Of a stretch of DNA of 64,000 bases, positions 5,169 through 10,395 are shown one piece after another. The DNA is taken from positions 75 through 64,074 of the forward strand of contig JACQBP010000010.1 of the NCBI GenBank assembly GCA_016194445.1. The letters are read 5' to 3'. The stretch is from Candidatus Liptonbacteria bacterium (lineage in GTDB: Bacteria; Patescibacteriota; Minisyncoccia; UBA6257; 2-01-FULL-56-20). Positions within the stretch are counted from its first letter, which is position 1, and the number at the start of each line of letters is the position of its first letter. The notes under the pieces are model-generated. The model made no database searches. It saw only the letters and a list, made by a program, of their open reading frames with translations, and had not been told where the DNA came from. Both the position numbers and the translations under genes were made by a program.

Positions 5169-5196
5169 TTGACAGACTCCTTCTAACCTCTAAAAT
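5169..5196 (+). promoter_or_regulatory. sigma70-like promoter: TTGACA, 16-nt spacer, TAAAAT. It implies a leaderless transcript for the ORF at 5203
   Basis: TTGACA at 5169-5174 and TAAAAT at 5191-5196. The ATG at 5203 lies 7 nt downstream of the -10. No Shine-Dalgarno sequence is present. Confidence 0.5.
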
Positions 5197-5202
5197 ATAG
5201 TT

Positions 5203-5445
5203 ATGGAGAAAGAAGATCGAATTGATAAATTGGCGAGGATGAGTGCCGATGAATTCGCGGCAATCCGCCGTGATATGAAAACCTTGGCGACTAAGGATGA
5301 GCTTAGGGGCATGAAGGTGGAGATTCTTGACGCAATCAATGATCTAAGTCTTCACGTGAATGCCTGGGTGTCGGATACCGAGCATCGCTTCAAGGACGTC
5401 GAGCAACGGCTTCATGTACTTGAGAACAAGACTGGTCTTCGATAG
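5203..5445 (+). CDS. small coiled-coil hypothetical protein (80 aa)
   Basis: ORF directly downstream of a consensus promoter. The translated sequence has a charged, heptad-like composition. Confidence 0.45.
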   Translation: MEKEDRIDKLARMSADEFAAIRRDMKTLATKDELRGMKVEILDAINDLSLHVNAWVSDTEHRFKDVEQRLHVLENKTGLR

Positions 5446-5470
5446 TAAAAAAGGCGTAATTAAAAAACCT

Positions 5471-6052
5471 ATGGCTAAAAACATAAAGTCCACGGATGTT
5501 TTAAATGGGGAAGGGGAGGGAGAGGGGACGGATACTGGTTTTTTGCATTCTTCAGAAAATCAAAGTATAATGGAAGAAGAGGAGCTCGAAATTCCTACTA
5601 AGACCATGAAACCAATTTCCAAAGTTTTTCTAGCGGTACTTTTGGGAGCGCTTGTTTTTAGCTCCGGTTCAGCTTTGTATTTCTATAACAAGTATACAAA
5701 TCTTCAAAACGGTACGATTCAACCACCATCGCAAGCTTCGGTGGCGGATGAAACGAAGGCGCTTTTGGCCAGCGTGGGGAGTTTGATTGTTTTGCCCAAG
5801 AATGAGTCGCCGACGATTGCGACGGTGGCTGATCCGAGTCAACTTCGAGACCAACCTTTTTTCGTTAATGCTAAAAAAGGAGATAAGGTGCTGATTTACT
5901 CGACCGCTCGAAAAGCGATTCTCTATAGTCCCACGCAAAATAAGATCGTGGAGGTGGCGCCAGTAAACTTTGAAAATTCAAGTCAAGCGGCGACACCTGC
6001 TCCAAAAAGTAATGTTACATCGACGAACGGAAGATCGGTGAATAAAAAGTAG
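5471..6052 (+). CDS. N-terminally membrane-anchored hypothetical protein
   Basis: MAKNIK start inside the longer track ORF 5360-6052. There is a single hydrophobic helix (ISKVFLAVLLGALVFSSG) followed by a soluble domain. The exact start is uncertain. Confidence 0.45.
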   Translation: MAKNIKSTDVLNGEGEGEGTDTGFLHSSENQSIMEEEELEIPTKTMKPISKVFLAVLLGALVFSSGSALYFYNKYTNLQNGTIQPPSQASVADETKALLASVGSLIVLPKNESPTIATVADPSQLRDQPFFVNAKKGDKVLIYSTARKAILYSPTQNKIVEVAPVNFENSSQAATPAPKSNVTSTNGRSVNKK

Positions 6053-6282: not shown

Positions 6283-6738
6283 ATGGCAAAGTTTATGAAA
6301 AAATCCGAAGAATTGGCCGCAGAAGAATCTCAAGTGGATAGTTCGCGAAAAAAGATGTGGCGTCCGCTTTGGTTGGTTTTGATTATCGTTGTTTTGGTTT
6401 TAGTGGTTGTCAGTGTGAGCCGGAGTGGTTGGGGGGTCGGTAACAGCAAGTGGCAAGCCCTTTTTCTTAGCAACAACCAAGTTTACTTCGGTCATATTGA
6501 TCGAATGGGAGAAACGATTGCGCTCTCGAAAATTTTTTATTTGAGAGTGAACCAACAGTTACAACAAGGAACGCCACCGACACCGACTTTTGATTTAGTG
6601 AAACTAGGAACTGAACTGCATGGACCAGCGGATAGGATGTATATCCCTAGGTCTTCAGTTCTTTTTTGGGAAGATATGAGGGCCGATTCACAAGTGGTTC
6701 AGGGAATCGAGAAAGTTTTGAATCAGAATAAGAAGTAA
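6283..6738 (+). CDS. membrane-anchored hypothetical protein
   Basis: 151-aa ORF with one N-terminal TM helix (LWLVLIIVVLVLVVVSV). Confidence 0.45.
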   Translation: MAKFMKKSEELAAEESQVDSSRKKMWRPLWLVLIIVVLVLVVVSVSRSGWGVGNSKWQALFLSNNQVYFGHIDRMGETIALSKIFYLRVNQQLQQGTPPTPTFDLVKLGTELHGPADRMYIPRSSVLFWEDMRADSQVVQGIEKVLNQNKK

Positions 6739-6770: not shown

Positions 6771-7334
6771 ATGAAGTACAGACTTCTTTTTGGTTTGGCG
6801 GTTTTATTGTGGCTTTGGCCGTGGTTTGGGGCGAATTTGGCTTTGGCGGACGTAGCGACTTCGACTAGCTTTAATCTCCACTCGGTAATTGGAACTGGCG
6901 GCAGCCGATCAACTTCAACTACTTTTAATGAAAAAGGTGTATTAGGGCAACCGGGGGAAGGGATTTCATCAAGCACCTCTTTTGTACTTAAGGGAGGGTT
7001 TTTGTACTTTGGGCCGGCGGTGACGACGACGGTGGCGACGAGCGGGGGTCCGGGACCGAGTGGTGGAGGAGGGCCGACTGGTGGGGGGGGAGGGGGTCTT
7101 TTTTTTCCAGGGGAACAGCCGCTGCCTAAAAAAACTGGAAAGTTGAGGTGCGGCAGTTTGGCGTTGGACAAGGTGGATTTAAGCGGGGATTGTAAGGTTA
7201 ATTTGATTGATCTTTCGATTCTGCTTTATTACTACGAGCGAAGCGGTCCAGGCGTGGCCCAATACGATTTTAACGAGAACTTGACGGTCGATTTTCCTGA
7301 TATTTCAGTGATGATGTTTTATTGGTCTGGTTAA
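6771..7334 (+). CDS. secreted Gly-rich protein with a C-terminal dockerin-like domain
   Basis: Signal peptide (MKYRLLFGLAVLLWLWPWFGANLALA) and a poly-Gly linker. There are two dockerin-type Ca-binding segments: DLSGDCKVNLIDLSILLYYY and DFNENLTVDFPDISVMMFY. In both, D/N sits at positions 1, 3, 5, 9 and 12. Confidence 0.6.
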   Translation: MKYRLLFGLAVLLWLWPWFGANLALADVATSTSFNLHSVIGTGGSRSTSTTFNEKGVLGQPGEGISSSTSFVLKGGFLYFGPAVTTTVATSGGPGPSGGGGPTGGGGGGLFFPGEQPLPKKTGKLRCGSLALDKVDLSGDCKVNLIDLSILLYYYERSGPGVAQYDFNENLTVDFPDISVMMFYWSG

Positions 7335-7373
7335 ATGAGGATATAGAATTTAGAATTTAGGATTTAGGTTACT

Positions 7374-8288
7374 ATGGAAAAAGAATCACCGAAATCTTTT
7401 AACCGGTATGGCTCTAAATTTCCAGGCCCTGCCTTTTTGTTTTTACTCCTGTATTCTATATCCTATATCCTAAATCCTTCTACTGGTTATGCATCATCTC
7501 ATCCGGTTTTTTATTTTGAAGGACCAGAGGGGATGCTCGGGGCGGGAAGCGAGTTTTCAGTGAAAGTTTTGGTGGATTCAAAGGAAGCTCTCAATGCTTA
7601 TGCCTTCTCGATTGATTACCCAGCTGAGAAGCTTGAGGTGGTCAGTGTCAATGACGCCGGTACGATTCTAGACATTAGAAAAGATCAGCCGGAGGCCCCT
7701 TTTTCGAGTCCGCTTAAATTTTCCGGCGCCGGTTTTAAATCTTTTTCTGGGAAGGCGGGGTTGCTTTTTAGGATTAACTTTAGAGTGATTGAAGTCGGAT
7801 CTAGTCTACTAACATTTAGCGAATCAAAAGCTTACTTAGCTGACGGCAAGGGAACACTCATTGTTCCTGAGGTTCGAATTTTAAAGGTAGAAGCAAAAGA
7901 AGGTATTCTCGGGAGCACTCCCGAAGTGGTAAACGACAAAACGCCACCTTCATTTGAAAAACTGGCTTTAGTGCCGGACCCGATAAATTCTGGTCAAAAG
8001 TTGCTGACTTTTTTAGTTAAAGATGATGTTTCTGGAGTTAGAGATGTGTCACTGCAATCTAAACGCTGGTTATGGTGGGAGGAGATTAAGAAGATCAGCA
8101 ATCCGGCGGCAGTTTCGAATTCGACGTGGGCGGTGAGGGTTCGAGTGAGCGATAACACCGGCAACATTAGCGAGAAGATAATTTACGATTGGGGAGTTCT
8201 GGCGCGGAATCTTTGGCCTCTCATTTTGATAATGTTCTTTGCCATCATCCTAGTTATAAACAGAATATTTAGAAGAAAGCGGTTATAA
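7374..8288 (+). CDS. cohesin-like domain protein with a C-terminal membrane anchor
   Basis: The N-terminal segment GSEFSVKVLVDSKEALNAYAFSIDYPAEKLEVVSV...GLLFRINFRVIEVGSSLLTF...ADGKGT matches the cohesin beta-sandwich pattern. The C-terminus carries a TM helix (LWPLILIMFFAIILVI) followed by basic residues. Confidence 0.55.
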   Translation: MEKESPKSFNRYGSKFPGPAFLFLLLYSISYILNPSTGYASSHPVFYFEGPEGMLGAGSEFSVKVLVDSKEALNAYAFSIDYPAEKLEVVSVNDAGTILDIRKDQPEAPFSSPLKFSGAGFKSFSGKAGLLFRINFRVIEVGSSLLTFSESKAYLADGKGTLIVPEVRILKVEAKEGILGSTPEVVNDKTPPSFEKLALVPDPINSGQKLLTFLVKDDVSGVRDVSLQSKRWLWWEEIKKISNPAAVSNSTWAVRVRVSDNTGNISEKIIYDWGVLARNLWPLILIMFFAIILVINRIFRRKRL

Positions 8289-8298
8289 TGAGAGGGTA

Positions 8299-10395
8299 AT
8301 GAGAAAGCTTTTGAGGAGTGTCTTTTTGTGTCTGTGGCTGATTTTCACACTAGCTCCTTTAGGCGCAAAGGCAAGTCCTGGGATTAGTTCAGCTTCATTA
8401 TCTCTGGCGCCGGCCACCGGTACTTTTACGGTGGGGAGCACGTTTACGGTTTCGCTTTTTTTAAATACGGGGGGACAAGCAGTGAACGCCATCGAGGCCA
8501 ATTTGAATTTCCCGACCGATAAATTGCAAGTAGTGGCGCCTTCGGCTGGGAAGTCTTTGATCCACGTCTGGATTAATCAACCGACTTATTCGAACATTGA
8601 CGGCTCCCTGAAGTTTCAGGGCGCGATACCGAATCCCGGCATTAACACGGAGAGCGGTTTGATTTCGACGGTGACTTTCCGAGTGAAGCAGGTGGGGGTG
8701 GCAACCGTAAAAATCTCCGACAGCTCGCGGGTGCTTTTAAACGATGGCAAAGGCACCGATATTTTGGGCAACACGGATAGCGGCGTCTACGAACTGATTT
8801 TGCCGCCGCCGGCGGGACCACTCGTCGTGTCACCAACTCATCCCGACCAGACTAAGTGGTACCCAATTAACAACGCAGCCTTGGGGTTTGAAAAAATTCC
8901 GGCGGTTCGAGGTTTCAGTTATGTTTTGAATGATTCACCAGTGGATGTCCCAGACGAAATTTCGGAAGGCATAAAAACTAACGTGGTTTACACGAACCTG
9001 GCCGACGGGATTCATTATTTCCATATTAAATCTTTAGGGGCGGATGCGTGGGGTGGAGTGACCCATTTTGCGGTTAATGTTGATAAGACTCCACCGGCCA
9101 CCTTTCCGGTTAATATTTCACCCAGCAATTATACTTCTCGTCGACAGCCCATTATTGATTTTAGAACGACGGATGCGGCCTCGGGGATAGATCACTACGA
9201 ACTGAAGATTATTCCTTTAGATGGGTCGGCGCGAGAAGCATTGGGGGTGCAAGATAAGAACGGCACGCCTTTTTTTATTGAAGTTAATCCTCCCTACTAT
9301 CGGGAACTGGGACTAGGGAGATACGACGTGGTGGTTCGGGGTTACGATAAGGCGGGTAATTTTTATCAGGCGACAGAGAAGCTGACGATTACTCGAGCGG
9401 TTTTTGAGTTGGTGAGAGGCGAGGGTATCCAGATTAAGGGAGTAATTCTCATTCGGTGGCCCTACGTTTGGGCTTTGTGTATTCTGCTTTTAATCATTTT
9501 AGGTTACTTAGGGAGAAGAGTTTTAAGGAGACACCGGGAGGTGCATGAGTATCTCGAGAGTGGGGCTCTCCGGCATCCGACGGTGGCTCCCAAGCTTGAA
9601 GAATTGAGGAAAAAACAGAAAGATTACTCTTCCGATTCAGGGAAAGGGCTCGCCGCAGTCGTGATGCTGATTTTAATGGCCGGGGCGATGGTTTTAGGTT
9701 CTAAGGAAGCGAGGGCTCAAGTGAAAGCGGCCAGTGTCTTGAAAGTGGAGCCGCCGATTGTGACTCTTTTGCCGAAAGCGATTTCGAATGACGAAATTTT
9801 GTATATCGGCGGGAGAGCGGGAGCGCCGGAAGCGGAAGTCATCGTGTATCTTCAGAATAAAACGACGGGTGAGTCGATCAGCCAATCCGTCAAGACGGAT
9901 CAAACCGGAGCCTGGTTTTATTCATTCTCGCAGTTTTTCAACCCGGGCGATTACGTGGTTTGGACCCAGCTTAAAGTGGGGGACGAACTTAGCCCGCCAA
10001 GTCCGGAGAGGAGTTTGGTGGTGGCGCCCTTAGCCATTCAGATTGGAGGAGGACGGCTGGGGTACGAGGAGTTGTATTTGATAATTCTTTCGGTTTTGAG
10101 CGCGGCGTTTTTGGGGATCATCATATTTATCGGCTACCATTCTTATCACCAACGGGTAAAGAGTAAGCGACTACTTGAGGAGATTCGCCAGGCGGAGGAA
10201 TCGGTGAGAAGAGGGTTTCTGGTTTTGCGCCGTGACATTGAGGCGGAACTGGCTACGATCCGAAGAGCCAAGATGAGCAAGGAGCTCCAGTTTGAGGAGA
10301 AGACTCGTGAGGAGAAGTTGCTTAAGGATTTGGAATTAGTCAACAATTACGTCGGCAAGGAGATTTGGGAAATCGAGAAGGAGCTCGGTTCGTGA
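8299..10395 (+). CDS. large cohesin-like domain membrane protein with a C-terminal coiled coil
   Basis: The N-terminal module is paralogous to 7374-8288 (TFTVGSTFTVSLFLNTGGQAVNAIEANLNFPTDKLQVV...VATVKISDSSRVLLNDGKGT). It has TM helices at ~aa 385-405 and 445-460 and again ~aa 590-615, and a charged coiled-coil C-terminus. Confidence 0.55.
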   Translation: MRKLLRSVFLCLWLIFTLAPLGAKASPGISSASLSLAPATGTFTVGSTFTVSLFLNTGGQAVNAIEANLNFPTDKLQVVAPSAGKSLIHVWINQPTYSNIDGSLKFQGAIPNPGINTESGLISTVTFRVKQVGVATVKISDSSRVLLNDGKGTDILGNTDSGVYELILPPPAGPLVVSPTHPDQTKWYPINNAALGFEKIPAVRGFSYVLNDSPVDVPDEISEGIKTNVVYTNLADGIHYFHIKSLGADAWGGVTHFAVNVDKTPPATFPVNISPSNYTSRRQPIIDFRTTDAASGIDHYELKIIPLDGSAREALGVQDKNGTPFFIEVNPPYYRELGLGRYDVVVRGYDKAGNFYQATEKLTITRAVFELVRGEGIQIKGVILIRWPYVWALCILLLIILGYLGRRVLRRHREVHEYLESGALRHPTVAPKLEELRKKQKDYSSDSGKGLAAVVMLILMAGAMVLGSKEARAQVKAASVLKVEPPIVTLLPKAISNDEILYIGGRAGAPEAEVIVYLQNKTTGESISQSVKTDQTGAWFYSFSQFFNPGDYVVWTQLKVGDELSPPSPERSLVVAPLAIQIGGGRLGYEELYLIILSVLSAAFLGIIIFIGYHSYHQRVKSKRLLEEIRQAEESVRRGFLVLRRDIEAELATIRRAKMSKELQFEEKTREEKLLKDLELVNNYVGKEIWEIEKELGS

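Follow-up and report, generated by a model that had tools for sequence, protein, structure and literature searches.

The window, by which we mean the whole 64-kb stretch of DNA that was analysed, opens inside the gene of a giant surface protein and continues on the same strand through small membrane protein genes into three genes, P1, P2 and P3, that encode one dockerin and two cohesins. The features are as follows.

2/23-5098, + strand: C-terminal part (at least 1691 aa) of a giant repetitive secreted surface protein, N-terminus beyond the window start
5203-5445, + strand: lineage-specific 80-aa ORF, membership of the system uncertain
5471-6052, + strand: s193, small single-TM membrane protein whose start codon is uncertain (5360-5471)
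6283-6738, + strand: s151, another small single-TM membrane protein, with an outside domain of ~100 aa
6771-7334, + strand: P1, secreted adaptor of 187 aa (signal peptide, PamT-like head, Gly/Pro linker, dockerin)
6771-6848, + strand: P1 signal peptide (aa 1-26), read from the sequence as ...NLALA followed by DV, cleavage expected after ALA
6849-7013, + strand: P1 head (aa 27-81), three S-[ST]-x-F strand motifs, then GFLYF
7014-7175, + strand: P1 linker (aa 82-135), flexible and Gly/Pro/Thr-rich, from the family alignment
7152-7331, + strand: whole P1 dockerin module (~aa 128-187)
7176-7325, + strand: P1 dockerin, two near-symmetric F-hand Ca-binding repeats with 10 aa of linker between them
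7374-8288, + strand: P2, small membrane-anchored cohesin protein of 304 aa, with a hydrophobic N-terminal signal or anchor segment at aa 20-33
7512-7865, + strand: P2 cohesin (aa ~47-164), borderline in Pfam Cohesin, supported by the family profile
7926-8189, + strand: P2 Ig-like domain (aa ~185-272)
8211-8270, + strand: P2 C-terminal TM segment with basic tail (aa 280-299)
8299-10395, + strand: P3, three-TM cohesin protein of 698 aa, the conserved membrane base
8389-8814, + strand: P3 cohesin (aa 31-172), extracellular
8815-9453, + strand: P3 extracellular stalk of two Ig/FnIII-like domains (aa 173-385), from the structure model
9457-9699, + strand: P3 TM1 (aa 387-405), basic cytoplasmic loop (~406-450) and TM2 (451-467), from hydropathy
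9715-10068, + strand: second extracellular beta-sandwich of P3 (aa 473-590), from the structure model and the ecd2 HMM
10072-10392, + strand: P3 TM3 (aa 592-613) and helical, coiled-coil-like cytoplasmic tail (aa 614-698)

Only 39 nt separate P1 from P2, and 10 nt separate P2 from P3. The window as a whole holds one dockerin gene and two cohesin genes; since the double F-hand pattern occurs in a single ORF across the 64 kb, and a family-specific dockerin HMM matches P1 only and the cohesin HMM P2 and P3 only, the trio is more than a chance grouping. The same order, a variable head with a dockerin followed on a single strand by cohesin proteins of ~300 and ~690 aa, recurs in 71 of 81 non-redundant Patescibacteria loci spread over many Parcubacteria/ABY1 lineages, and 8 of the 10 loci without it have less than 1.3 kb of upstream sequence. 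Related loci carry one dockerin gene each and one cohesin per protein, and among the non-redundant loci compared the trio usually sits 3' of a gene for a giant (>1000 aa) secreted protein. In about 61 of the 71 loci a recognisable copy of P2 separates the dockerin gene from P3; in the four loci without P2, the dockerin is in every case of a distinct subtype whose linker is 24 residues long. This recurrence of the dockerin-cohesin-cohesin order next to giant secreted proteins is our main new finding, and it is difficult to account for one dockerin gene standing beside two cohesin genes at 71 loci unless they share a function.

An earlier note on this DNA had described the 187-aa product as a secreted protein with two dockerin Ca-binding segments, and the ORF and both segments are confirmed; the signal peptide looks cleavable (helical over aa 2-20 in the structure model). 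Repeat 1, DLSGDCKVNLIDLSILLYYY, occupies P1 aa 136-155 and repeat 2, DFNENLTVDFPDISVMMFYW, aa 166-185; among 63 unique modules, both repeats always have D1, D12 and S14, while repeat 1 keeps D5 in 98% and repeat 2 never varies at W20. The conservation of the recognition-helix positions (S14, I15 and the aromatics) far exceeds what Ca binding would need. By the note, a lack of HMM support or models at odds with the cohesin and dockerin folds would have refuted its assignment, and the searches and models did not refute it. P1 itself scores 14.7 bits against Dockerin_1, below the gathering cut-off of 22.9, while 10 of 16 P1-family members are matched; the significant PDB matches of the family profile are all dockerins (E 2e-5 to 1e-3), and the model of the C-terminal module (pLDDT ~90) retrieves in Foldseek only dockerins from solved complexes, the best being 2y3n_B (TM 0.76, 1.2 Å).

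Judged by sequence, the P1 head is a homologue of the N-terminal portion of PamT, the tip protein of the CPR pilus. The NCBIfam model NF058579 (PamT) matches 16 of 18 P1-family members (best E 4.6e-10), the match covering only positions ~11-78 of 241, about a quarter, and reaching 22.9 bits for P1 against a cut-off of 240; the monomer model of the head is not confident (pLDDT <50). Across the dockerin family the heads are PamT-like, fn3, Big_6 or unannotated beta domains. In relatives, fn3 and Big_6 Ig-like stalk domains take the place of the P1 linker, giving long forms of the type head-fn3-Big_6-dockerin, and the linker is likely the recombination junction between cassette and base.

P2 and P3 had been read as membrane-anchored paralogs with N-terminal cohesins ending in (A/N)DGKGT, the larger with an intracellular coiled coil, and this description holds up. 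P3, at 32.2 bits, is the sole trio member that passes a Pfam cut-off by itself; P2 scores 23.3 bits, just short of the Cohesin cut-off of 24.1, and also weakly matches DUF7743. Pfam Cohesin is matched by 8 of 37 P2-family members, and the top five PDB matches of the P2 family profile are all cohesins. The two cohesins are 31% identical (E 2e-12), have conserved residues in common (N63-A64, S86, W91, P95, G-x-G-T) and carry ADGKGT at P2 aa 156-161 and NDGKGT at P3 aa 148-153. P2 has a C-terminal TM segment with a basic tail; P3 has a signal peptide and three family-conserved hydrophobic segments (cores 388-402, 455-464 and 595-609 by family-averaged hydropathy), TM2 being low-confidence in the structure model. 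That model (mean pLDDT 82.6) contains stalk beta-sandwiches at ~185-262 and 270-365 (pLDDT >90), matches the cohesin-FnIII double module 2w1n, and forms the second ectodomain from beta strands at 487-587 (pLDDT 80-92); the stalk weakly matches Big_13, and the ecd2 HMM finds the second ectodomain in all P3 homologs. Long C-terminal helices (589-660 and 665-697) are placed in the cytoplasm by the predicted topology, and the tail consensus, EIREAEESIRRGF.VLRRDIE, is conserved. P3 has at least 680 homologs, the best 120 of them 44-64% identical over the full length, and a P3 relative is encoded in 300 species-representative genomes.

Upstream, the giant protein has a Ser/Thr/Pro-rich tail, and its C-terminus shows no TM segment, LPXTG motif or dockerin; dockerin, cohesin and head modules were not found in the part that lies in the window, and Pfam, PDB and PHROG searches with it gave no match. 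Its C-terminal ~590 aa recur in the giants that immediately precede the trio at 10 other loci. With the arrangement conserved across loci, the link to a giant protein is stronger than the earlier note could know. Complete giant proteins of relatives begin with a signal peptide or a TM anchor, and the giants lack a C-terminal dockerin, TM segment or sorting signal, which favours P1 as their adaptor; giants could instead be held by such N-terminal anchors of their own, which counts against an anchoring role for P1. The 80-aa ORF has no homolog in 80 related loci and lies just downstream of the region's best promoter-like site (5169-5196, 11/12 matches). Homologs of s193 and s151 lie directly 5' of the dockerin gene in 13 and 14 other loci (14 and 15 including the window), s193 co-occurring with the PamT-like head type, and both are accessory genes of what we call the class-A cassette.

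The giant protein, the small accessory proteins and the P1 head are swapped as a cassette, and the dockerin, P2 and P3 are constant. Uncorrected for phylogeny, 23 of the 27 loci whose head is PamT-like have s151 or s193, against 2 of the 42 with other heads, and head type is associated with the C-terminal type of the giant (10/15 vs 0/18, Fisher p 3e-5). Head type does not track similarity of the dockerin (0.44 vs 0.43) or of the P3 cohesin (0.58 vs 0.56), and the nearest P3 and dockerin relatives of the window carry the other head type. A mirror-tree comparison of dockerin and cohesin gave no specific co-evolution signal (rho 0.20, against 0.185 and 0.15 for P3 control domains).

Upon these observations of module identity, topology, gene order and co-variation of cassette and base, we propose that P1, P2 and P3 together make up a dedicated cohesin-dockerin anchor of the patescibacterial cell envelope, non-cellulosomal in type, with P1 joining the variable surface cassette to a conserved membrane base, a reading to which we assign a probability of about 0.6. 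Consider a P1 molecule that leaves the cell by the Sec pathway and loses its signal peptide. Its dockerin, with two Ca2+-binding F-hand repeats and nearly identical recognition helices, would plug into the cohesin of P3 and that of the smaller paralog P2, both raised above the membrane on Ig-like stalks; binding to P2, to P3 or to both would fit the proposal. P3, with its three membrane spans and conserved cytoplasmic helical tail, would thus be the fixed base of the complex. P1 would serve as the adaptor, its head PamT-like in this genome and of other types elsewhere, and its dockerin would remain matched to the invariant P2/P3 base. Because the head is exchanged together with the giant and accessory proteins, it most likely binds a cassette-specific partner, presumably the giant or else the accessory proteins, and the assembled structure may serve host attachment. 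If so, these ultrasmall cells would possess a way of keeping interchangeable giant proteins or fibres attached at their surface.

It is possible, if rather unlikely, that the cluster is instead a Pam-like donor-strand-exchange pilus or fibre system, with the P1 head serving as a subunit of the fibre, at its tip or its base, P2 and P3 as membrane-anchored assembly or termination factors like PamC/D or PamR, and the cohesin-dockerin contact as merely a final tether, or the beta-sandwiches as chaperones. Pam has two-domain chaperones with a C-terminal TM anchor, along with a terminator that is also TM-anchored, and near the pam operons lies a conserved 'tail fibre-like protein' (bioRxiv 10.64898/2026.03.03.709456). 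P2 has the same outline as the Pam chaperones, two beta-sandwich domains and then a C-terminal TM segment; class-B cassettes include secreted proteins of ~330 aa and a protein of ~306 aa anchored by a C-terminal TM segment; the PamT model recognises most P1-family heads; and a head that does not fold alone is expected of a strand-complementation motif. That PamT match is short and far below its cut-off, however, P2, P3 and the class-B neighbours match no other Pam family at E up to 1, the N-terminal domains of P2 and P3 are cohesins by sequence and fold rather than PapD-like chaperones, and no pilin-sized genes occur in the window's cassette. Such a pilus would in any case be partly compatible with the anchor that we favour.

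A still less probable reading is that the dockerin-like and cohesin-like modules are not mutual partners, the F-hand pair acting as a Ca2+-dependent stabilising or sensing module and the sandwiches binding other targets, for example peptidoglycan, glycans of a host or the giant protein. For many dockerins and cohesins outside cellulosomes a partner is reportedly still to be demonstrated, the mirror-tree signal is no higher than background, and P1 and P2 fall below Pfam thresholds; against this stand the near-universal pairing of one dockerin gene with two cohesin genes, recognition-helix conservation beyond the needs of Ca binding, the residue set common to P2 and P3, and the coincidence of P2 absence with an altered dockerin subtype. 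We give very little credence to a miniature cellulosome- or amylosome-like enzyme complex for the breakdown of polysaccharide or of the host cell wall, in which P3 and P2 would act as anchoring scaffoldins, even though the closest solved relatives come from the cellulosome, the R. bromii amylosome and C. perfringens glycosidase complexes and glycoside hydrolase-like proteins are encoded elsewhere in the window: those proteins lack a dockerin, no catalytic or CBM domain was found in any dockerin-bearing family protein, and each locus has a single dockerin gene and each protein a single cohesin. With no dockerin-tagged enzyme in the family or the window, an enzyme complex is largely refuted, and the non-cellulosomal character that the earlier note had claimed stands. 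Equally improbable is its suggestion that the giant protein docks through a dockerin of its own at the missing N-terminus. That end is absent from the window, and an independent assembly of the same sample also breaks inside the giant ORF, but not one of the 50 related-locus proteins of 800 aa or more matched a dockerin, head or cohesin (all E >0.02; dockerin and head modules >0.4), and the signal peptides and anchors of complete giants contradict it further.

Viewed as an anchor, the trio can be set beside several known systems. The non-cellulosomal cohesin of Archaeoglobus fulgidus (2xdh) comes from a soluble archaeal protein, unlike P2 and P3, and lies outside any conserved membrane-anchored operon adjoining giant surface proteins. 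Cellulosomal anchoring scaffoldins (C. thermocellum OlpA/OlpC/SdbA and A. cellulolyticus ScaC; 4uyp, 4dh2, 3ul4, 5k39) attach by SLH domains or sortase, whereas P3 would be held by three TM helices with a coiled-coil-like cytoplasmic tail; their clients are numerous dockerin-tagged enzymes and multi-cohesin scaffoldins, whereas the trio sets one dockerin gene against two single-cohesin genes and its cargo is non-enzymatic. The Pam pilus, in which the N-terminal region of PamT is homologous to the P1 head (Troman et al. 2026, bioRxiv 10.64898/2026.03.03.709456), is like the trio a CPR-specific surface appendage with membrane-anchored beta-sandwich accessories and large fibre-like proteins. Pam, however, has no cohesin or dockerin and is described mainly in Saccharimonadia and Microgenomatia (bioRxiv 10.64898/2026.03.03.709456), whereas the trio belongs to Parcubacteria-type lineages, and no match to the PamA, PamB, PamC, PamD, PamE or PamR families was found in it. 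The pairing of the C. perfringens NagJ GH84C cohesin with the NagH dockerin (2ozn, 2w1n, 2jh2, 2vo8) is likewise non-cellulosomal and joins separate secreted proteins. NagJ has a cohesin followed by an FnIII-type domain, as P3 and P2 do; its cohesin is among the best profile matches of P2 and the structural matches of P3, and the NagH dockerin complex is among the fold matches of P1. The C. perfringens modules join soluble enzymes, whereas the trio has no enzyme and carries its cohesins on integral membrane proteins, in a fixed three-gene operon where one dockerin faces two cohesin paralogs.

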